In this document: positions 36,727-48,815 of the stretch, one piece after another
How positions within the stretch are numbered: position 1 is the first letter of the stretch
Layout: each line of letters starts with the position of its first letter
Sequence record: DRR378314_485
DNA length: 64,000 bases
Reading direction: 5' to 3' (one strand)
Notes under the pieces: generated by a model
What the model saw: the letters and a program-made list of their open reading frames with translations, nothing else
Databases searched by the model: none
What the model was told of the DNA's origin: nothing
Made by a program: the position numbers and the translations under genes

Positions 36727-37797
36727 ATGACATCGAAGCTACAGCAGCGAGCCGTTAATATACTTAGGCTCGCTTTGCCTTTCAGCGCATTGTTCAGTTT
36801 GTCAGCAGTTGCTGAGCCTCCGGAAATCGAAATTTTTGATAACGTCCGCCAGCAACAATGGGTGGGGGTAAGTCCTGTTAGTCGCGATACTATTTGGATC
36901 TCCGGTGAGAAAGGAACCGTAGCCAGAACCACAGATTCAGGGAAAAGCTGGGAATATTTTCAACCCGGACCTAATGATCTGGATTTTCGCGATATTGAAG
37001 CTATTGATGACCGCCGCGCCTATGCATTAAGTGTTGGTACAGGAGGTCAGTCACGTATTTACTATACTGAGAATGGCGGTAACAGTTGGCGTCTGCGTTA
37101 TCGCGGCGAAGCGGACAGCTTCTTCAACTGCATGGCACTTTCTCCTAGCGGCGAAGCCTGGGTACATGGCGACAGTGTTGGAGATGAATGGCGGATGGTA
37201 CGCAGTGCCGATGGTCGCAACTGGATGCAAGTTCGCAGCGCGGTCGCCGAGCCGCCTCAATCTAATGAAGGTGGTTTCGCCTCAAGTGGCAGCTGTGCCC
37301 GCTTTAATAACGACAACTGGATGATTGCAACGGGTAATGCTGATAAAGCTCGAGTATTAATTAAAGGCTCGTTTGGCATTCGCTTTCGTGTGGTAGAAAC
37401 ACCAATGGAAGCAGGCCCTATGGCGGGCATTACCAGTGTGTGGCCTATTGACGATAAAACCTTTTATATTGCTGGTGGTGACTTAAATGATGCTTCTGGC
37501 GATGAAAACCGTTTATGGCATTATCAAAATAACGAATTTGAAGCCTTGCCCGGGCCACCAATTAAAGGCGCTCTTTATAGCTTGAGCCTTATCGCTCACA
37601 ACGGTTCCTGGTTACTAACGTCTAATCCCCAGGGCGCGGCGGCACTTAACCTACAAACTAAGAAATGGTTTAAGCTCTCTGATGCCAATATCTGGAATAT
37701 TCAGTGTCATGGGGATATCAGTTGCTGGCTGGTTGGTAAAGACGGCTACGTTGGCCGTTTGCAATGGCAGGCGCCGCAACAGCGCCCTAAGCTCTAA
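36727..37797 (+). CDS. Exported BNR/Asp-box beta-propeller protein (Ycf48-like)
   Basis: Signal peptide; Asp-box repeats RTTDSGKSW, YTENGGNSW, RSADGRNW; DFRDIEA and FASSG motifs. Confidence 0.75.
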   Translation: MTSKLQQRAVNILRLALPFSALFSLSAVAEPPEIEIFDNVRQQQWVGVSPVSRDTIWISGEKGTVARTTDSGKSWEYFQPGPNDLDFRDIEAIDDRRAYALSVGTGGQSRIYYTENGGNSWRLRYRGEADSFFNCMALSPSGEAWVHGDSVGDEWRMVRSADGRNWMQVRSAVAEPPQSNEGGFASSGSCARFNNDNWMIATGNADKARVLIKGSFGIRFRVVETPMEAGPMAGITSVWPIDDKTFYIAGGDLNDASGDENRLWHYQNNEFEALPGPPIKGALYSLSLIAHNGSWLLTSNPQGAAALNLQTKKWFKLSDANIWNIQCHGDISCWLVGKDGYVGRLQWQAPQQRPKL

Positions 37798-37810: not shown

Positions 37811-39928
37811 TTAAGCGGCTGGAGAACTTAATAAAGCCAGCCCACCTAATAAGTGACGGCTATTAAATCCGTGCCGCTTAAGCACGTTAGCGACAACCTG
37901 GCTTCTGTTGCCCGAGCGACATAAGCAAATAATATCGCGTTCTCGCAAGTGTGAGTTACTGTGTATAAACTGAATGACTTCAGTCAATGGTACATTAACC
38001 ACCTCTGCATTACAGGGAATATCGGACAACACGTGCTCCTGCCGCTCTCGCACATCAACAATTAACAAATCATCGCGATGCCAGAATTCGTCAGTATCTC
38101 CGACCAGAATATTAACGCCATCATCAACACGACAGTCGCCGTTTAATTCACAAGGAGTGTAAACGATATGGTGCTCCGAATCCTGTCCCGGGCAAATAAG
38201 CGTATTCTCTCCGATAAAACACTCATAAGCGCTTGATGCTGCCTCAGCCCCCGTAAATAAAAAGTCTGACGCAACCCGACTTTTCAGTGTGGCTGATTCA
38301 CTTAATACATAGACCGGATTACGGCTACCGACTCGAAATAAACGCCGCTCACCAATACTCACACAGCCAATGACGCTGCCTTCGCACTCAACCGGAACCG
38401 CGTCGCACGAATCGGCCGCAGAATGCGGCCAGCCAAATACATCATACTCGTCTATAGACTGCTCAGGCATAAGTATTGGCAATAACAACTCGATGGACTG
38501 GCTGGTAATTGAATCAGCTGATGTCGATACCACAGCTTTCACTCGATAGTGCTGGCAGCTGACAATATTTTCAATTCTGCCAGCCAAAGCCGGATGAGGA
38601 TCGATAACGGCTATTTCTTTAGCTTGCTTATCTATTACCAGGTAACAGCAATGATCGTCGTACTTCAGTTGCACAACACCATCTAACTGAGCGTCGTTAT
38701 CGTTATTCGTGTCCGCAACAATTAGACAGGAATTTCTTAATGCGTCAGCAACTTGTTTTATACGTACACAAGCCTCAGTAATTTCCTCTTGTCGCGTTGC
38801 CGGACCAAAAGATAATCGAATAGCGGAACCGCTGCGCCACTCTTCCAGCCCCATAGCGTCTAAAACAAAGCTTTTTGTTACCTTAGAACTGCATGCAGAG
38901 CCTGAACTCACTCTTATCTGGCAGGCGTCAAAAACATCCATAATATCGCGCGAGGCTACCCCTTCTACGGAGAAGTTCAGCGTCGTAGGAACCGACAGCT
39001 CAAAATCATGATTAAATACAATAGAGGGAAAAGCTGACCGCAGGGCTTCAACCAACTGAGACCGATAATCCTGTAATTTAGCTTCACTATGAAAGCGACG
39101 GTTACTGCCATCCAGCATCAATTCAAATAACGCATTTAATGCTGCTATTCCGGGTAAGTTTTCGGTTCCGGAACGCAGGCCTGACTCCTGCCCTCCACCA
39201 ATAATTAAAGGGGTATAAGGGGCTGAATCCCGAACCGCCATAAACCCGATACCCTTGGGTCCATAAAGCTTATGACCACTGAACGGAGCGTAATCAATGG
39301 TTGTTTCATCTAAATTAAGAGCTTTTTTCCCTAATACCTGAACGCAGTCAACCATCCAGGGTACATCCGGGCTATGCTGACGTATTGTCTCTTCCAGTTG
39401 TTTTAAGTTCTGAATAACACCGGTTTCGTTGTTAACAGCCATAGTGCATATCATGGCAGCATCTTTGACATGCTCAGCAATAAACTGGTTATCCAACAGG
39501 CCTTGTTTATCAACCGGAATGGCAACAAGCTCTGCCTTCAGCCCAAGTAACTGGTTCCAGTGAGCTAAAGCTTGGGGCACGGCTTTGTGTTCCGTCGCAC
39601 CATACAGCAGGTATTTTTTTCGCTTATCGGGAGCAACCTGCATAGCTGCATTAATTGCAGAAACCACGGCCGTCTGAATGCCTTCTGTCGCGCCACTGGT
39701 AAAAATAAGCCGCCCTGAAGGCAAACCAACAATTTTACGAGCTAACTGACGCGTGGTATCCAGAATATAGCGAGCTTTTAAGCCCGTAATATGGCTACTT
39801 GAAGGGTTACCAAAAACTGTTTCCATCGTATGCGAAACAGCTTGGATAATTTCGGGAAGTACCGGAGTGGTAGCATTACAATCCAGATAAAGTTCGTTTG
39901 CGTTTGTCTGAATATCTATTGGTTTCAT
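37811..39928 (-). CDS. Fusion of group I cysteine desulfurase, degenerate metallo-beta-lactamase-like domain and rhodanese
   Basis: YLDCNATTP, FTSGATE, SGHKLYGPKG (PLP Lys), GGGQE..LRSGTEN, SSGSACSS; C-terminal DVRE...CRSGNRS...LLGG rhodanese; GGAGG RBS before ATG 39928. Confidence 0.88.
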   Translation of the reverse strand: MKPIDIQTNANELYLDCNATTPVLPEIIQAVSHTMETVFGNPSSSHITGLKARYILDTTRQLARKIVGLPSGRLIFTSGATEGIQTAVVSAINAAMQVAPDKRKKYLLYGATEHKAVPQALAHWNQLLGLKAELVAIPVDKQGLLDNQFIAEHVKDAAMICTMAVNNETGVIQNLKQLEETIRQHSPDVPWMVDCVQVLGKKALNLDETTIDYAPFSGHKLYGPKGIGFMAVRDSAPYTPLIIGGGQESGLRSGTENLPGIAALNALFELMLDGSNRRFHSEAKLQDYRSQLVEALRSAFPSIVFNHDFELSVPTTLNFSVEGVASRDIMDVFDACQIRVSSGSACSSKVTKSFVLDAMGLEEWRSGSAIRLSFGPATRQEEITEACVRIKQVADALRNSCLIVADTNNDNDAQLDGVVQLKYDDHCCYLVIDKQAKEIAVIDPHPALAGRIENIVSCQHYRVKAVVSTSADSITSQSIELLLPILMPEQSIDEYDVFGWPHSAADSCDAVPVECEGSVIGCVSIGERRLFRVGSRNPVYVLSESATLKSRVASDFLFTGAEAASSAYECFIGENTLICPGQDSEHHIVYTPCELNGDCRVDDGVNILVGDTDEFWHRDDLLIVDVRERQEHVLSDIPCNAEVVNVPLTEVIQFIHSNSHLRERDIICLCRSGNRSQVVANVLKRHGFNSRHLLGGLALLSSPAA

Positions 39929-39984
39929 GCCACCCTCCAAATTAACTAAAAGTTATATGTTTATAACCTTTATGACTAAAAGGG

Positions 39985-40197
39985 TCAATGAATCTGGTTT
40001 TCTTTCCAGGTTTGTTCCTTTCTCATTCTATCTTTTCGCTTATCGCATGGTTCATCACAGTCACAGGCTTTTTCCATACCCAGAGCGCCGATACCACCAC
40101 AGCTGCCGGAAATTGTCTTGCGCTGTACAATATAGCCAACGGCCATTGCCAGCACAACGATGATGAATAAGGCGAATACCATTATAAAGGTTTGCAT
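39985..40197 (-). CDS. nqrM: Na+-NQR maturation factor NqrM
   Basis: One TM helix then ISGSCGG...CDCDEPC Cys cluster; follows apbE. Confidence 0.92.
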   Translation of the reverse strand: MQTFIMVFALFIIVVLAMAVGYIVQRKTISGSCGGIGALGMEKACDCDEPCDKRKDRMRKEQTWKENQIH

Positions 40198-40208
40198 TAA
40201 AACTCCTA

Positions 40209-41237
40209 CTACTGCTCAGCCAACAACGGCTTAAATGCTTCACTCATATACTCTTCAAAACCGTCATCGGTTTTATAAATGAGCATAACTGCCATATTGT
40301 GTTTTTTTGCGAAGGACTTTGCTTTCTCCGTTCCCATTACAAATAATGCAGTTGCATAAGCGTCGGCAGACATTGTGTCCTCAGCATAAACTGAAGTAGA
40401 AACCAAGTTATGCTGCACTGGAGCACCAGTTACCGGATCAATAATATGCGAATATCGCTTACCATCTTCTTCATAATAGTTCCGGTAATCACCCGATGTC
40501 GCCAAAGCGCCGTCTTTAAATTGGACAACACGTTGCACCGCACGTTCCGTTGAAACCGGTTTTTCTATAGCCAGGCGCCATAATGCTTCATCCGGTTTGC
40601 CGCCTTTTGCAATAACCTCACCGCCAATTTCCACCAGGTACTGCTTTATCCGCAATTGATCTAATAAATGAGCAACTCTGTCGACGCCATAGCCTTTGGC
40701 AATAGTAGACAGGTCGACGTATAGCTCCGGGTTGTCTTTAATCAACTGATGATTTTCTACGCGTAGTTTCTGATAGCCCGTTTTTTCACGAACCGCATTC
40801 AACTCTTCTTCAGACGGTTCTTTTTCTGGCCTAGCCTGAGGACCAAAGCCCCAAAGATTCACCAGGGGACCAACGGTTATGTCCAGAGCACCCTCCGTTT
40901 CCTCAGCAATTTCGAGACCACGATTAACTACCCGTTCAAGGTCGCGGCTAATAACCATAGGTTGGGTACTTTTAAACTGATTAAACTGGGAGAGTTCAGA
41001 CTCTGGATCATAAGTCGACATTTGTGCATTAACTCTTTTGAGCACTATATCAACTTTCTTTTGAATCTCTTCTTTGTTGTGTCTGGGATCCTTAGAGTAG
41101 ACAGTCACACTATAGGTGGTTCCCATAGTCTTACCGCTAAAGGATATTTTCTCAGGTGAATCAGAACAAGAAACTAAAAAGGCCAGCCCCAGAAGGGCTA
41201 GCCAAATTTTAGCAATCGACAGTTTCGATAGCATCAT
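40209..41237 (-). CDS. apbE: FAD:protein FMN transferase
   Basis: Lipobox LVSC, GKTMGTTY, DLSTIAKGYGVD, VEIGGE, ATSGDYRNY, SHIIDP, ADAYATA. Confidence 0.96.
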   Translation of the reverse strand: MMLSKLSIAKIWLALLGLAFLVSCSDSPEKISFSGKTMGTTYSVTVYSKDPRHNKEEIQKKVDIVLKRVNAQMSTYDPESELSQFNQFKSTQPMVISRDLERVVNRGLEIAEETEGALDITVGPLVNLWGFGPQARPEKEPSEEELNAVREKTGYQKLRVENHQLIKDNPELYVDLSTIAKGYGVDRVAHLLDQLRIKQYLVEIGGEVIAKGGKPDEALWRLAIEKPVSTERAVQRVVQFKDGALATSGDYRNYYEEDGKRYSHIIDPVTGAPVQHNLVSTSVYAEDTMSADAYATALFVMGTEKAKSFAKKHNMAVMLIYKTDDGFEEYMSEAFKPLLAEQ

Positions 41238-41240
41238 GAA

Positions 41241-42467
41241 TTAACCACCAAAGTCATCCAACATGATATTTTCGTCTTCAACGCCTAAGTCTTTCAACAA
41301 GTTGATAACTGCCGCGTTCATAACCGGTGGTCCACACATGTAGAACTCACAATCTTCTGGTGCGTCGTGGTCTTTAAGATAACGCTCATAAAGAACGTTG
41401 TGAATAAAGCCAGTATCGCCTTCCCAATTATCTTCCGGTTGTGGATCAGATAATGCCACGTGCCAGTCAAAGTTCTCGTTCTCTTCGGCCAGCATGTCGA
41501 AATCTTCAACATAGAACATTTCTTTTTTCGAGCGCGCACCGTACCAGAACGATACTTTACGATCCGTTTTTATACGACGCATCTGATCAAACAAATGAGA
41601 ACGCATTGGCGCCATACCGGCACCACCACCAATAAAGACCATTTCAGCGTCAGTGTCTTTGGCAAAGAATTCACCAAATGGACCTGAAATTGTGACTTTA
41701 TCGCCTGGCTTCAGACTGAAAATGTACGATGACATTTTGCCTGCAGGCAAGCTTAAGTCGTTAGGTGGCGGCGTTGCTATACGGACGTTCAGCATAATAA
41801 TGCCTTTTTCTTCCGGATAGTTAGCCATTGAATAAGCGCGCACAACTTCTTCGTCAACTTTAGACTCAACATCAAAGAAACCGAAACGATCCCAATCTCC
41901 GTGATATTCTTCAGAAATATCAAAGTCTTTGTATTTAACGTGATGCGGTGGAGCTTCAATCTGAATGAAACCACCCGCACGGAAAGGCACTTCTTCGCCT
42001 TCCGGCAACTGAACAATAAACTCTTTAATGAAGGTTGCTACGTTATCGTTCGACTTAACCGTACAGTCCCACTTACGAATACCAAAAACTTCTTCTGGTA
42101 ATTCAATTTCCATGTCCTGTTTAACGTTAACCTGACAGGAAAGACGACAGCCTTCACGAGCTTCACGTTTAGTAATGTGGTCAAGTTCAGTCGGCAATAT
42201 GTCACCGCCACCCTCTTTAACTGTGACACGACACTGGCCACATGAACCACCACCACCACAAGCTGACGAGACGAAAATACCGGCATTAGCCAGCGCGCCC
42301 AGAAGTTTAGTGCCTGGCTGGGTCACGATTTTTTTGTCTTCGTCGTCATTAATCAGGATTTCCACATCACCCTGAGGTACCAGCTTTGATTTTGCGAACA
42401 TAATAATCGCAACCAAAACCAGTACGATGATGGTAAACATCCCTACACCGAGATATATCTCTTGCAT
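41241..42467 (-). CDS. nqrF: Na+-NQR subunit F
   Basis: [12 protein letters not shown] 2Fe-2S motif, [29 protein letters not shown]. Confidence 0.98.
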
Positions 42468-42503
42468 CGATTCGTACCTTTTTTTACCGATTCAACACAC
42501 TGG

Positions 42504-43112
42504 TTATAAGGATACGCCGGAGAACGACATAAAGCCCAAACCAATCAGACCCACTGAAATAAATGTGATACCTAAGCCACGCAGGCCATCAGGTACATCT
42601 GCATATTTCAGTTTTTCGCGCACTGCAGCCAAAGCAACAATAGCTAAAGCCCAGCCAACACCACTACCAATTCCGAAAACAACGGATTCGCCAAAATTGT
42701 AATCACGCTCGACCATGAAAGCTACGCCACCAAAAATAGCGCAGTTAACGGTAATGAGTGGCAGGAAAATACCCAGTGCGTTGTATAGTGCAGGTACATA
42801 TTTATCCAATGCCATTTCCAATATCTGCACAATAGCGGCAATAACACCTATAAAGGTCAGAAACTTCAGGAAACTTAGATCCGCATCCGGGAAGCCAGCC
42901 CATTCCAGAGCACCTGGGGCCAGAATGTTGTGGTAAATTAAGTTGTTAACCGGTACCGAAATACCCAATACAACAATAACCGCGACACCCAGACCAAATG
43001 CTGTTTTTACTTTCTTAGATACAGCCAAAAACGTACACATACCTAAGAAGAAGGACAATGCTAGGTTTTCAATGAAAACCGCGCGGATGAACAGGTTGAT
43101 ATAGTTTTCCAT
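42504..43112 (-). CDS. nqrE: Na+-NQR subunit E
   Basis: [30 protein letters not shown] spacing favours ATG 43112. Confidence 0.97.
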
Positions 43113-43117
43113 GACCA

Positions 43118-43750
43118 TTACTCCTTAGGTTCAACTTGTTCAGTGCGGAAGGTACGCAGTACCCAGATAAACCCGCCAATGATGAAGAAGGCACTAGGTG
43201 GCATCAGTAACAAGCCAACCGGCTCGAACCAACCACCTTGTGATGCCAGAGGTAAAATCTGTACATCAAACAAGCTGCCTGAACCAAAGAGTTCACGAAT
43301 GAAGCCAACAACCAACAGCACCACTGAGTAACCTAAACCGTTACCCAGTCCGTCCAGGAAGGACATAAACGGAGTGCTCTTCATAGCATAAGCTTCTGCG
43401 CGACCCATAACGATACAGTTAGTAATGATTAAGCCAACGAATACTGACAACTCTTTAGAAATTGAGTAAGCGTAAGCTTTTAGTATCTGGTCAACGACAA
43501 TAACCAAGCTCGCAATAATTGTCATTTGGACAATAATACGTACGCTTGACGGAATATGATTCCTGATAATCGAAATAAACAAGTTTGAGCACGCAACAAC
43601 CGCAGTTAGTGCAAGGCACATAACCAGTGTGTTGCTCATTTTCGACGTTACAGCCAATGCAGAACAGATACCAAGAATCTGTAGTGCGATGGGGTTGTTG
43701 GCGAATATCGGTCCGAATAATACGGACTTCATTTCTTTTGCACTAGCCAT
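43118..43750 (-). CDS. nqrD: Na+-NQR subunit D
   Basis: [33 protein letters not shown]. Confidence 0.97.
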
Positions 43751-44519
43751 TGTTCAACTCTCCCTCACGAAGTTTCTTGAGTAATGGACCGTAACCGTTT
43801 TCGCCCATCCAGAATTGAACCAGGTTTTCGACACCATTACTGGTCAAAGTTGCACCAGAAAGCGCGTCAACTTCGTGCTCGCCTTTGGCGCCGCCTTTTA
43901 CCACTTCAAACTGGACGTTACCGTCCTCGCCATAAACTTCTTTACCTTGCCAAGTTTTCACCCAGGCCGGGTTAGTAATTTCACCACCGAGCCCCGCGGT
44001 TTCAGAATGCTCGTAGAAAATAACACCTTTAACCGTCTCAAAGTCGCCTTCTAACGCCAGCAAGCCGTACATGGTTCCCCACAAACCCTGTCCCCGAATA
44101 TGCAGAACAAGACCTGTTGTTTCGCCGCTTTCATCTTTAACAAGATAAATCTGTGTTAAATTTTCGCGGGTACCCAAACCAGCAGGGTCGTTCTTTTTCT
44201 CGAGCTTTTTACTTCTTTCAGGGTCACGCGCTGCTTTGCGGTTGCTGAAAGATGTCGGGTCAATGTCATTCTTAACGGTTAAATCTTCAAGGCTGACAAC
44301 CATGGTATCGATGCGTTGCTTGTAAGTTCCAACAACGTCAGTATCGGCTTCCAGAATACCTAAAACATCCAAAACGTTCTTCTGCATATCAAGTGCTGCA
44401 TTCTTTTCCTGCAGTGGTTTCAAACCAATAGCAGCACCAGAAACAACAATTGAGCAAACCAGGCAAAGCGCCAGCACGACACCAACGGTCTTGCCTAAAC
44501 TTTCATTTTTCTTAGCCAT
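43743..44519 (-). CDS. nqrC: Na+-NQR subunit C
   Basis: [16 protein letters not shown]-attachment motif [10 protein letters not shown]. Confidence 0.97.
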
Positions 44520-45714
44520 TGCGCGCTAACCTCCGTTTGATATTTGCCTGTGCTACAAAGTGGTCAAATAACGGTGCAAATACGTTAGCAAATAAGATGG
44601 CCAACATGATGCCTTCCGGGAATGCCGGGTTAATGACACGAATCATGACCGTCATAAAACCAATTAACAAGCCGTACGCAAACTTCCCTTTATTGGTAAA
44701 GGACGCTGATACCGGGTCGGTAGCCATAAACATCATTGCAAAGGCAAAACCACCTAATACTAAGTGCCAGTACCAAGGCATTGCGAACATTGGATTGGTC
44801 TCGCTACCAACAAGGTTAAGTAGTCCGGAGAACAGAACCATACCAGCAAAGACACCCAGAACGATGCGCCAGGAGGCAATACGGAAATAAATTAACGCTA
44901 AGCCGCCAATCAAAATCAGTAAGGTTGAGACTTCGCCTACTGATCCCTGGATGTTACCAAGGAAGGCGTCCCACCAAAGCTGAGTATTCCCATAATCCAT
45001 TTCACCCAGAGCCGCTTTACCCAAGTTTGTTGCACCAGAAAAGCCATCGACGGCAGTCCAGATGGAATCACCTGACATGCTGGCAGGATAAGCGAAGTAT
45101 AAGAATGCGCGACCGGTTAGTGCCGGGTTAAGGAAGTTGCGGCCAGTACCGCCAAAAATTTCCTTACCAATAACGACACCGAAAGTGATACCTAAAGCAA
45201 CCTGCCACAATGGTGTTGTCGCCGGTAAAATCAGGGAGAATAAAACCGAAGTAACAAAGAAGCCTTCGTTAACTTCGTGCTTACGAATAGAAGCAAACAA
45301 CACTTCCCAGAAACCACCAACAATAAAGGTAACCGCATAAATAGGTACGTAGAAACAGGCACCATACCAAAGTTTCGAGCCCCATCCAGCACTAGCGCCT
45401 AACTCGCCGCCGAACAAGTGGAATAACCCAACCTGCCAGACGTCAGAAAGCGCATAGCCGTCAGCCAAAGCCAAAGCAGCCTGGTTACCAACGTTGTACA
45501 TACCCCAGAACATTGCCGGGAACGTCATCATCCACACCAGAATCATAATGCGCTTAAGGTCGATACGGTCACGAACATGCGTAGCCGACTTAGTCACAGT
45601 ACCTGGTGTGTACAAAATAGTGGCTACGGCTTCGTAAAGCGCGTACCACTTCTCGTATTTACCGCCTTCTTCAAATTGCGGTTCAATACGCTCGAGTGTG
45701 TCTTTCAAGCTCAT
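44512..45714 (-). CDS. nqrB: Na+-NQR subunit B
   Basis: [33 protein letters not shown] site, MATDPVS. Confidence 0.97.
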
Positions 45715-45716
45715 GG

Positions 45717-47057
45717 TTAGCCTTCTTTCTCAATCTTAGTGAGACAGTCACGCAGCACCGGGCCATATTCGTACTTCCCGGGGCAAACATAAGTGCACAA
45801 TGCGAGGTCTTCCTCGTCCAGTTCCAGACAACCTAGTTGCTGACCTTCATCAGTATCCCCTGACAACAAGTCACGTAGCAGTAATGTTGGCAGAATGTCC
45901 AAAGGCATTACGCGTTCGTAGTTACCAATTGGAACCATTGAACGTGAAGAACCATTCAGTGACGTTGTCATGCTGAATAACTTCTTCGGATTAAAGTGTC
46001 CGGCATAAGCACGTGTTACTGAGTGCAAGTCAGAGCCCGGGCGTATCCAGCCCAAAAACTCTTTATAATTGCCTTCCGGAATAACACTAACCTGATTGTG
46101 AAAACGACCTAACCAGGCATGCTCGTCATCCGCAGTGTGACCATGCAGGACTGACCCTGAGATAATACGTTGATTATCACCACTTAGCTCACCATCCGTT
46201 AACTCATGCAAGTTAGCACCTAAGCGAGTACGCAGTAGACGAGGTTCTTTCACACCTTCTCCGGCAACGGAGACAACACGGTCAGTAAATATTTCACCTG
46301 TAGTGAATAACTTACCGTAAGCTATAACGTCCTGATAACCTATGTGCCATACCGGGCGTTTGATGCTAGCAGGCTGAAGGAAGTGTATATGAGTACCAAC
46401 CAAACCTGATGGGTGAGGGCCTGAAAATGACTCCAGCGTGACATCTGCGTCACCAGTATCCACTTCAGCATTACCCTCTTTACAAACAAACAACTTACCT
46501 TCGGTCAGGTTAGAAAGAACCTTCAGACCGTCAATGAAAGCTTGTTTCTGTTCATTTATAAATAAAGTTGGGTCACCAGCTAATGGGTTAGAATCCATCG
46601 CGTTAACAAAAATCGCGCTGGCTTCTGCATCTAATGCCGGAGACTTACTATAAGGACGGGTACGAAGAGCTGTCCATTGACCAGACTCAACCAGAATGTC
46701 CTGAACTTTCTCACGACCTAATGAGTTAAGCTTGTCGCTGTCAAATTTGTCAAAAGTAACTTGCTCGTCACCTTTCAGCTCAATAACAACCGCCTGCAAC
46801 ACTCGACGCTCACCACGCAGGATGTCTTTTACTACACCAGCACCAGGGGCTGTGTACTTGACACCAGGGTTTTTCTTATCCTCGAAAATCAGCTGACCTT
46901 TCTTAACCTGGTCACCTTCTTTCACGTGCATGGTTGGGCGCATACCCACGTATTCTTCACCTAGGGTAGCAACTGTCGTCACAGCCTTACCGTCGGATAG
47001 TTCTTGCTGGGGCGCCCCTTTTATAGGGATGTCCAGCCCTTTCTTGATCGTAATCAT
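45717..47057 (-). CDS. nqrA: Na+-NQR subunit A
   Basis: [35 protein letters not shown]. Confidence 0.97.
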
Positions 47058-47207
47058 ATGCGTTTGCACTACTCGTTAAGGGAAGATTCATCACAACCAG
47101 CCACCAGGACTGGAAACCTGAATAATCAAATAGTTACCGACACAAACAACCGCCTTCAGGGGGCTTGTCATCGGCAACCTGAAACATTTTCCACACTTAT
47201 CGTTGGG

Positions 47208-48494: not shown

Positions 48495-48815
48495 TTAATT
48501 TGCCGCTATTTTCGACCCACCCAGACAGTTCGGTGAACGTCTGGACTCTCCCAATTGCTCCCACTCACCTTGGGTATAGGTGTGTAACGCCAGTGCATGG
48601 ATATGATTCATTAGTTCATCCGCTAAAATTTTATTAACCGCACGGTGACGGTTAATAAGTCTCTCTCCACTGAACTTAGGGGTCACTAAGACCACTTTAA
48701 AGTGAGATTCAGCATTAGCTCCGCCTGAATGCATATGACTTTCATCCGCGACTTCCAGATGTACTGGAGTAAACGCTTCCCGCAATTTATTTTCAATATC
48801 TAGCCCAATAGACAT
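48495..48815 (-). CDS. bolA: BolA family protein
   Basis: DESHMH, ESHFKV, RHRAVN, HIHALAL, SPNCLGG. Confidence 0.94.
   Translation of the reverse strand: MSIGLDIENKLREAFTPVHLEVADESHMHSGGANAESHFKVVLVTPKFSGERLINRHRAVNKILADELMNHIHALALHTYTQGEWEQLGESRRSPNCLGGSKIAAN

Follow-up and report, generated by a model that had tools for sequence, protein, structure and literature searches.

Why should a cysteine desulfurase fused to a rhodanese be encoded directly behind the genes of the NADH:quinone reductase Na+-NQR? The question is posed by a 64,000-nucleotide stretch of sequence record DRR378314_485 (the window), in which the span 37811-40197 holds two minus-strand genes in the list of open reading frames (ORFs), nqrM and a large fusion gene. 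The original prediction, made from the sequence alone, regarded the fusion protein as a candidate third maturation factor dedicated to Na+-NQR. We favour a different account, with a probability of about 0.6: the protein belongs to a family of Alteromonadales-type marine bacteria in which a cysteine desulfurase is joined to a persulfide dioxygenase (PDO)-rhodanese fusion (PRF) module, and it would serve as a self-contained generator of persulfide from cysteine. Because its middle domain corresponds to a dead PDO, we place it in a sulfane-sulfur-oxidising family rather than in an iron-sulfur (Fe-S) assembly family.

The fusion ORF is listed as 709 aa from TTG 39940, but ATG 39928, with GGAGG five bases 5' of it, is the likelier start; the product is then 705 aa long and the gene lies 56 bp from the nqrM stop. 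Length, strand and distance were given in the same way by the original prediction, whose Cys350 and Cys674 are the Cys346 and Cys670 of the present numbering, counted from the TTG start. The gene and its domains are laid out as follows (PLP, pyridoxal phosphate; AF2, AlphaFold2).

37811..39928, minus strand: whole fusion gene, 705 aa from ATG 39928, stop codon included (ORF, Pfam, NCBIfam, homologues)
38777..39889, minus strand: cysteine desulfurase domain, type I (IscS/NifS-like), residues 14-384 (PF00266, E 6.7e-56)
39269..39271 and 38891..38893, minus strand: codons of the desulfurase sites, PLP Lys220 and catalytic Cys346, respectively (translation)
38726..38728, minus strand: Cys401, in the SCL motif of the desulfurase-to-middle-domain linker (80 of 80 alignment rows)
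38099..38701, minus strand: degenerate persulfide dioxygenase of the metallo-beta-lactamase fold, about residues 410-610 (alignment, AF2 model, Foldseek, PDB profile)
37838..38077, minus strand: rhodanese domain, residues 618-697, loop CRSGNRS, with the Cys670 codon at 37919-37921 (PF00581, E 2.5e-7)

The decisive part of the protein is its middle segment (about residues 400-610), for which Pfam returned no match. The original prediction had recognised a domain here, at ~180 aa somewhat short of the roughly 200 aa that we find, and had missed its identity as a dead persulfide dioxygenase, which emerges from alignment, fold modelling and profile searches. Full-length homologues were listed from eight genera and were confined to these: proteins of ~700 aa from Idiomarina and Pseudidiomarina, of ~770 aa from Thalassotalea, Thalassomonas and Colwellia, and of ~755 aa from Shewanella, Parashewanella and Pseudoalteromonas. 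They are named just 'aminotransferase class V-fold PLP-dependent enzyme' or 'cysteine desulfurase', and the closest genome locus, from Idiomarina rhizosphaerae, encodes a protein of 97% identity. The longer homologues carry PF00753 (metallo-beta-lactamase) in the middle of the protein. In a 15-sequence alignment, the Shewanella and Pseudoalteromonas proteins display HGHADH, PGHT, FCGD...GRTNF and SHDY, whereas the window protein reads STSADS, has no PGHT, has GA for GD and carries three deletions. We take the two-His-one-Asp iron triad of ETHE1 to comprise the leading His in HxHxDH, the one in PGHT and the Asp in GD; at these three columns, the window protein has Ser, a deletion and Ala. Its GRxDF substrate loop is deleted, HDY has become Q-D-S, and the domain is ~70 residues shorter than in intact homologues. 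The iron ligands are lost in all 30 Idiomarinaceae rows and intact in 48 of the 51 other rows. The three losses outside Idiomarinaceae are L034, from a Thalassotalea metagenome-assembled genome, and L059 and L062, which encode 610-aa Pseudoalteromonas proteins; none of them is near nqr. L059 and L062 lack most of the dioxygenase domain, and the full-length L034 has two of the three ligands replaced.

Searches against known structures point in the same direction. Residues 422-754 of the Shewanella homologue P0108 match residues 32-362 of the PRF of Burkholderia phytofirmans (BpPRF, 5ve3; E 2.4e-22), and also the PDOs 4ysb, 4chl and 2gcu. A profile built from 41 C-terminal halves of the family was compared with the PDB and covers residues 33-362 of the 373 of 5ve3 (E 4.2e-33); ETHE1-type PDOs rank second, with glyoxalase II far behind (E 6.7e-11). 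The AF2 model of window residues 396-705 has a mean predicted local distance difference test score (pLDDT) of 86.8 and a predicted template modelling score (pTM) of 0.88, and Cys401 falls within its sole low-confidence stretch (model residues 1-16). Foldseek with this C-terminal model retrieved BpPRF (E 1.9e-11), followed by human ETHE1 4chl (1.6e-7) and 4ysb (2.1e-6), with glyoxalase II behind. Because of these alignment, profile and fold matches to BpPRF and ETHE1, the architecture of the family is near certain: a type I cysteine desulfurase fused to a PRF module that is collinear with BpPRF, of which the window copy has a shortened PDO relic. The relic is not a PDO and, judged by its residues, is predicted to be inactive.

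The two outer domains were read as intact in the original prediction, and this reading holds: SGHK with Lys220, SSGSAC with Cys346 and CRSGNRS with Cys670 all stand in the translation, within the PF00266 match and the PF00581 match (31.5 bits, cut-off 22.2), respectively. The desulfurase loop reads RVSSGSACSS around Cys346; a catalytic cysteine on a long flexible SSGSAC loop is the signature of type I desulfurases. Lys220, Cys346 and Cys670 are unchanged in 15 of 15 aligned homologues. In an alignment of 81 rows, the PLP lysine and the desulfurase cysteine are kept throughout and the rhodanese cysteine in 80 rows, the sole row without it being the truncated copy L035. All of 80 rows share Cys346, Cys387, Cys401 and Cys670, and 76 of them have Cys427. 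The best NCBIfam models are NifS (260.3 vs a cut-off of 530.75), DndA (235.1 vs 480) and IscS (217.7 vs 643.2); with scores so far under the cut-offs, the domain is classed from sequence as a type I desulfurase that is a member of no named equivalog (IscS, NifS or DndA). Cys670, which sits in a six-residue rhodanese loop of the form CR.G.R[ST], aligns with the active-site cysteine of the BpPRF rhodanese, which is Ser in the entries deposited as an inactivating mutant. The prediction of a type I desulfurase and a rhodanese in one chain is thus borne out by Pfam and the catalytic residues, and persulfide transfer between them in cis appears chemically plausible.

To place the loss of the iron site, a FastTree phylogeny was built from the desulfurase domain only (80 rows, leaving out the truncated L035). 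It puts Idiomarinaceae on one side of a branch with support 99, and the dead-dioxygenase state needs three changes on this tree. The ratio dN/dS was computed for six close Idiomarina pairs (dS 0.28-0.75), the distant species pairs being saturated (dS above 1.5 or not computable), and it amounts to 0.03-0.09 in the desulfurase, 0.04-0.09 in the middle domain and 0-0.04 in the rhodanese. Purifying selection thus acts on all three domains, the dead PDO included. Because it is still under selection, the dead domain has presumably acquired a second job, and it was probably kept as a scaffold or to relay sulfur. Of the 29 Idiomarinaceae loci, 28 have an open frame, L035 being cut short. A full-length homologue at G370:C1:2985423-2986493 has an in-frame TAA in its C-terminal half and is a possible pseudogene or a sequencing error.

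Comparison with known systems sets out what is particular to this protein. BpPRF (5ve3, 5ve4, 5ve5) aligns end to end with the C-terminal half of the family, through HxHxDH, PGHT, GD...GRTDF, HDY and the rhodanese CR.G.RS loop. It has no desulfurase domain and draws on dissolved glutathione persulfide, whereas the window protein has its own persulfide source. Relative to BpPRF, the window protein is without the three iron ligands, the GR(T)DF substrate loop and a ~44-residue helical segment; conversely, Cys401, Cys427 and Cys458 are specific to the family and absent from BpPRF. The N-terminal 395 residues match the IscS/NifS enzymes 1ecx (E 1.3e-78) and 1p3w (E 2e-68) and share SGHK and SSGSAC with them; unlike these enzymes, the window protein scores below the NCBIfam cut-offs, has no IscU-type partner nearby and, in place of the usual C-terminal tail, has a linker that leads into the PRF. 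CstB of Staphylococcus aureus (PDO, pseudo-rhodanese, rhodanese) is likewise a multidomain PDO-rhodanese protein. According to the accessible part of a 2026 preprint (PMC12934615), a loop cysteine of CstB is persulfidated and carried to the iron site, so that CstB offers a precedent both for in-cis oxidation of a persulfide bound to protein and for a fusion that retains an inactive domain. It differs, however, in having no desulfurase and an active PDO, its dead domain being the middle rhodanese, and the profile match to S. aureus chain 3r2u is weaker (E 1.6e-17). In Azotobacter vinelandii, separate IscS and RhdA proteins reportedly pass the sulfane sulfur of cysteine to a rhodanese cysteine in a similar way; the window protein, in contrast, has both in one polypeptide with a conserved pseudo-enzyme domain between them. 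The accessible portions of PMC9163753 and PMC12934615 describe PRFs and CstB and do not mention a desulfurase fusion. In the papers that we found, the domains are known singly and their combination in one protein is not described.

The second half of the question concerns the position of the gene, whose surroundings are as follows.

39985..40197, minus strand: nqrM, 70 aa (PF04400, E 5.5e-24; alignment of 17 Idiomarinaceae NqrM sequences)
40209..47069, minus strand: apbE (40209-41237) and nqrF, E, D, C, B, A (41241-47069) (ORFs, ApbE Pfam match, synteny)
48495..48815: bolA, with a gene for a fabV-type enoyl reductase between bolA and nqrA
36727..37797, plus strand: convergent gene for a BNR/Ycf48-like beta-propeller protein, 356 aa (weak Pfam matches), its stop 13 bases from the stop of the fusion gene

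The original prediction was right to place bolA upstream of the nqr operon and the fusion gene at its tail. It also stated that the window holds no partner genes for Fe-S assembly or thiolation, and none of the window ORFs scanned proved to be an iscU, iscA, suf or thiI gene. To see how far the arrangement extends, we collected 80 genome loci of homologues, 29 from Idiomarinaceae and 51 from other genera. In all 29 Idiomarinaceae loci (Idiomarina and Pseudidiomarina), nqrM lies directly upstream of the fusion gene on the same strand, and in 28 of them the nqrA-F-apbE-nqrM block is complete, L035 being at a contig edge; the shared order is bolA, fabV, nqr, the fusion gene and the convergent BNR gene, which adjoins the fusion gene in 29 of 29 loci. 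No nqr gene is present in the flanks of any of the 51 loci from other genera, flanks that generally measure 10 kb and include no fewer than 753 bases on the upstream side; there, a looser search found just weak matches to nqrF-like paralogues ~7 kb off in two Colwellia loci. The neighbourhood survey proposed with the original prediction therefore went against it, the homologues outside Idiomarinaceae never being beside nqr (0/51 loci and, in the genome sample below, 0/19 genomes).

The neighbours at ten of the outside loci are mutually unrelated and comprise a porin, malic enzyme, DUF4437, an SBF transporter and an AI-2E transporter with LacI. One outside locus of the 51, from Thalassomonas sp. 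RHCl1, has a BNR homologue adjoining the fusion gene (L037:8578-9654, minus strand; E 4e-19, with 161 residues aligned at 29% identity). A divergent TauE/SafE sulfite exporter gene (L047:8601-9488, minus strand) stands beside a homologue with intact ligands in Pseudoalteromonas sp. T1lg65, where the record bears the title of a plasmid; such a neighbour fits sulfite as the product of the active enzymes.

The same picture was obtained from whole genomes. We sampled 81 genomes from 59 genera of the GTDB family to which the genome nearest to the window belongs. NqrM is present in 80 of them and the fusion in 24, so that 56 of the 80 NqrM genomes have no fusion. Of the 24 fusions, 18 have a full PDO part and five are short; the remaining one has an odd frame of 710 aa. 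The fusion adjoins nqrM in all five short-form genomes, which represent two genera, and in none of the 19 others, where the two genes are 40-60 kb apart (the larger genomes G378, G335 and G330), on different contigs or more than 190 kb apart. The small-genome genus g280 has NqrM without the fusion in both of its genomes. Adjacency in the small genomes of Idiomarinaceae could stem from loss of the DNA between the fusion gene and nqrM.

A wider sample of 300 scored Gammaproteobacteria genomes contained 39 with NqrM, and the first two ORFs past nqrM were scanned at 35 loci. No Aminotran_5 or rhodanese gene was found among these ORFs at any of the 35. The first same-strand gene past nqrM encodes a CBS-pair protein of ~130 aa at 17 of the 35 loci (L094, L101-L103, L105, L107-L109, L112, L114-L119, L121 and L123); this gene is a much commoner neighbour of nqrM than the desulfurase fusion, and we know of no described role for it in Na+-NQR. 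At two loci, a gene for an A-type Fe-S carrier (PF01521, IscA/ErpA-like) comes right after an nqrM-like gene (L113:599-985 and L122:636-1007), the NqrM matches there being weak (31.5 and 22 bits, respectively). Because the linkage is absent outside the clade, most NqrM genomes are without the fusion and none of the 35 loci has a comparable gene, we conclude that nqr linkage was a single evolutionary event on the stem of Idiomarina and Pseudidiomarina, the same branch on which the iron site was lost.

Whether the gene is expressed with the operon depends on the short gap behind nqrM, which holds two features.

39929..39984, minus strand: 56-bp gap with Shine-Dalgarno GGAGG (39934-39938), -35-like TTGACC (39983-39988) and TATAAA (39960-39965)
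39952..39967, no strand assigned: perfect 16-bp palindrome GTTATA-N4-TATAAC (gap alignments)

We aligned ten Idiomarina rows and inspected the gaps of all 29 Idiomarinaceae loci. TTGACC overlaps the nqrM stop and is separated from TATAAA by 17 bases. Every Idiomarina species has TTGAC(C/G) or TTGATC 17 bases before the TATAAA/TATAAC half of the palindrome, mostly overlapping the nqrM stop. The window and all 11 Idiomarina loci share the palindrome amid diverged flanks, and it occurs nowhere else in the 80 loci. The Pseudidiomarina gaps lack it; in most loci they measure 25-55 bp and contain a ribosome-binding site only. The scanner reported no promoter or terminator on the minus strand in the gap, the -10-like element having gone unlisted because the usual final T is missing. 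The gap element resembles an internal promoter with an operator, and the gene may be controlled apart from nqr; the palindrome itself may serve as an operator across the promoter-like -10 or may form a hairpin in RNA. The exact palindrome occurs once in the nearest genome, where no regulon was found (7 one-mismatch sites vs 15 for a reversed control) and where the next most similar site precedes a response-regulator-GGDEF-EAL gene unconnected with sulfur. In an Idiomarinaceae metagenome-assembled genome, a GC-rich hairpin with a T-rich run, similar to a terminator, is located past the palindrome between nqrM and the fusion gene (L007:9930-10000).

Nine runs recorded as RNA hold part of the stretch, and contigs of four of them (X4, X6, X9 and X13) were compared with it. 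A contig of run X9 (record 18) covers 39873-40323 and so includes nqrM and the gap, with the end of apbE on one side and 56 bases of the fusion gene on the other; a contig of run X4 (record 6) extends from 41300 across apbE and on through the gap to 39918, and another X4 contig spans 39751-39942. Most of the fusion gene is uncovered in runs X4, X6 and X13, and such holes prove nothing. Contigs cannot show a single transcript, RNA libraries may hold DNA, contig depth cannot rank genes, and no transcript start or end is readable from the contigs. With weak support from these contigs, transcription probably reads through from nqr into the fusion gene.

The gene content around this family was judged from the nearest genome, G001 (72% of sampled words; 99% complete), as a stand-in for the organism. 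It encodes SufS with SufD, SufA and SufT, as well as IscR-IscS, and because it already has SufS and IscS, the fusion would be a third desulfurase. The iscR-iscS pair of G001 (L082) is followed by an unrelated ORF and ndk, not by iscU-iscA-hscBA-fdx, and IscU (PF01592) was not found anywhere in this genome. IscU is missing from 20 of the 81 family genomes (13 of the 59 genera), which seem to rely on SUF. We considered the fusion as a substitute for the missing ISC system and rejected this: the genus g297 has IscU together with an nqr-linked copy, and g280, with neither IscU nor the fusion, has NqrM. A second stand-alone PDO that might complement the dead domain was not found in G001 either, its only other metallo-beta-lactamase match reading THHHYDH and AHEY, which we take to be glyoxalase-II-type motifs.

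Taken together, these observations suggest the following scheme for the persulfide generator. The PLP domain would convert L-cysteine to alanine and load a persulfide on Cys346. The sulfane sulfur would then move within the protein to Cys670, perhaps via the invariant Cys401 of the flexible linker, a candidate swinging persulfide carrier, and Cys670 would hand it to an acceptor such as a thiol, sulfite or a protein. Where relatives have kept the dioxygenase intact, this sulfur and O2 would yield sulfite, from which the rhodanese would make thiosulfate, and cysteine sulfur would be disposed of without free sulfide. In Idiomarinaceae, the oxidation step would have been lost and the domain retained as a scaffold or relay, with the gene at the tail of nqrA-F-apbE-nqrM probably read through and, in Idiomarina, perhaps also served by a regulated promoter of its own. 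So far, nothing links the chemistry of the fusion with Na+-NQR. Among the alternatives that the original prediction itself listed, a stand-alone persulfide or cysteine-catabolic enzyme fits better in view of the PDO-rhodanese ancestry, whereas tRNA thiolation finds little to recommend it.

Several points weigh against this account. We infer how sulfur flows, what Cys401 does and what kind of acceptor is served, and the PDO ligands are assigned after the ETHE1 literature. The likeness of the model to BpPRF is moderate (template modelling (TM) score 0.39 by query length, root-mean-square deviation ~17 A over 373 columns), as is that of its single domain to ETHE1 (TM score 0.52, taken over the target length). 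A literature search, which covered few subscription journals, found no paper on the tri-domain fusion. The dioxygenase was lost and the gene moved to nqr on the same branch, and this could reflect a changed function. A generic role does not explain why the gene has been retained strictly behind nqrM across two genera whose proteins share ~60% identity and some of whose gaps are down to 25-30 bp.

The original prediction of a dedicated third Na+-NQR maturation factor, which would pass cysteine sulfur via the rhodanese cysteine to NqrM or to the NqrD/E or NqrF centres, is based on this one lineage-specific linkage together with the probable read-through. Part of it stands, namely the position at the nqr tail (29 of 29 loci; all five short-form genomes, from two genera) and the bridging of the nqrM-fusion gap by contigs of X9 and X4; the short Pseudidiomarina gaps with a ribosome-binding site only, the lack of a terminator-like site on this strand of the gap and the coincidence of dioxygenase loss with the move to nqr are further arguments for it. 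The A-type carriers at L113 and L122 indicate that Fe-S genes can settle behind nqrM. According to the accessible part of PMC12174285, inserting the membrane [2Fe-2S] cluster seems to need NqrM, and apbE and nqrM are co-transcribed with nqr in Vibrio cholerae; the part of PMC6209661 available mentions a prediction that NqrM delivers iron to NqrD and NqrE. The fusion nevertheless differs from ApbE and NqrM in showing neither co-occurrence nor linkage across the taxa that have Na+-NQR: the linkage arose once, in one clade, with 0/51 outside loci; NqrM is found in 80 of the 81 family genomes, the fusion in 24 and adjacency in five, g280 having NqrM without the fusion; and none of the 35 other gammaproteobacterial loci has an Aminotran_5 or rhodanese gene downstream. 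The other dead-dioxygenase copies (L034, L059 and L062) are unlinked to nqr, SUF and IscS are present in the nearest genome, and the absence of IscU does not track linkage, as g297 has IscU and a linked gene. The Idiomarina palindrome with its -35/-10-like pair hints at separate control, and the contigs, which may derive from DNA in RNA libraries, cannot prove a single transcript. Active Na+-NQR was, moreover, reportedly obtained in E. coli by Kostyrko et al. in 2016 from nqrA-F, apbE and nqrM alone. We therefore regard a maturation role as unlikely. Its historical version is likewise improbable: the common ancestor of Idiomarina and Pseudidiomarina would have had a fusion that oxidised cysteine sulfur to sulfite or thiosulfate, this fusion would have lost its dioxygenase chemistry and entered the nqr operon, and it would now be a sulfur donor on the spot, peculiar to this lineage, whose rhodanese persulfide feeds the NqrM-dependent insertion of the membrane [2Fe-2S] cluster of NqrD/E; if true, it would make Na+-NQR the first respiratory complex with a private cysteine desulfurase of its own.

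The handover of sulfur from a desulfurase to a rhodanese is the established first step of tRNA and cofactor relays, and the protein might accordingly be a donor for tRNA thiolation or for a cofactor (thiamine, molybdopterin), with a rhodanese like that of ThiI, MoeB/MoeZ or YnjE. The rhodanese does show weak NCBIfam matches to MoeB and MoeZ (E 1.6e-5 to 3.5e-4), to a SelU-like subunit and to TrhO, but all are far under the curated cut-offs. A normal IscS exists in the nearest genome, no thiolation or cofactor gene is adjacent in the ten outside loci or in Idiomarinaceae, and the ancestry of the family lies in a PDO-rhodanese module tied to sulfane-sulfur oxidation, all of which makes such a role very unlikely. 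That the gene is a decaying remnant, losing its enzymatic function and kept by chance at the operon end, might be suspected from the loss of the metal ligands and ~70 residues of the middle domain, and from an RNA-contig depth that is lower over the gene than over nqr, contig depth being a poor measure. This idea is close to refuted by the selection data: dN/dS is 0.00-0.09 across all three domains, the frame is open in 28 of 29 Idiomarinaceae loci with the lysine and both cysteines kept throughout, and the shortened domain is modelled with confidence (pLDDT 86.8).

The linkage of the fusion gene to nqr allows one to ask whether cluster insertion into Na+-NQR ever uses a private sulfur source, which on present evidence is unlikely. 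The Idiomarinaceae copies of the persulfide generator, for their part, constitute a natural experiment in which the oxidising step, lost on at least three separate occasions in the family, is gone and the dead domain is still under selection. If our account of the family is true, its members with an intact dioxygenase would provide aerobic marine heterotrophs with a one-protein route from cysteine to sulfite and thiosulfate without the release of sulfide, and thus a contribution to the marine sulfur cycle.

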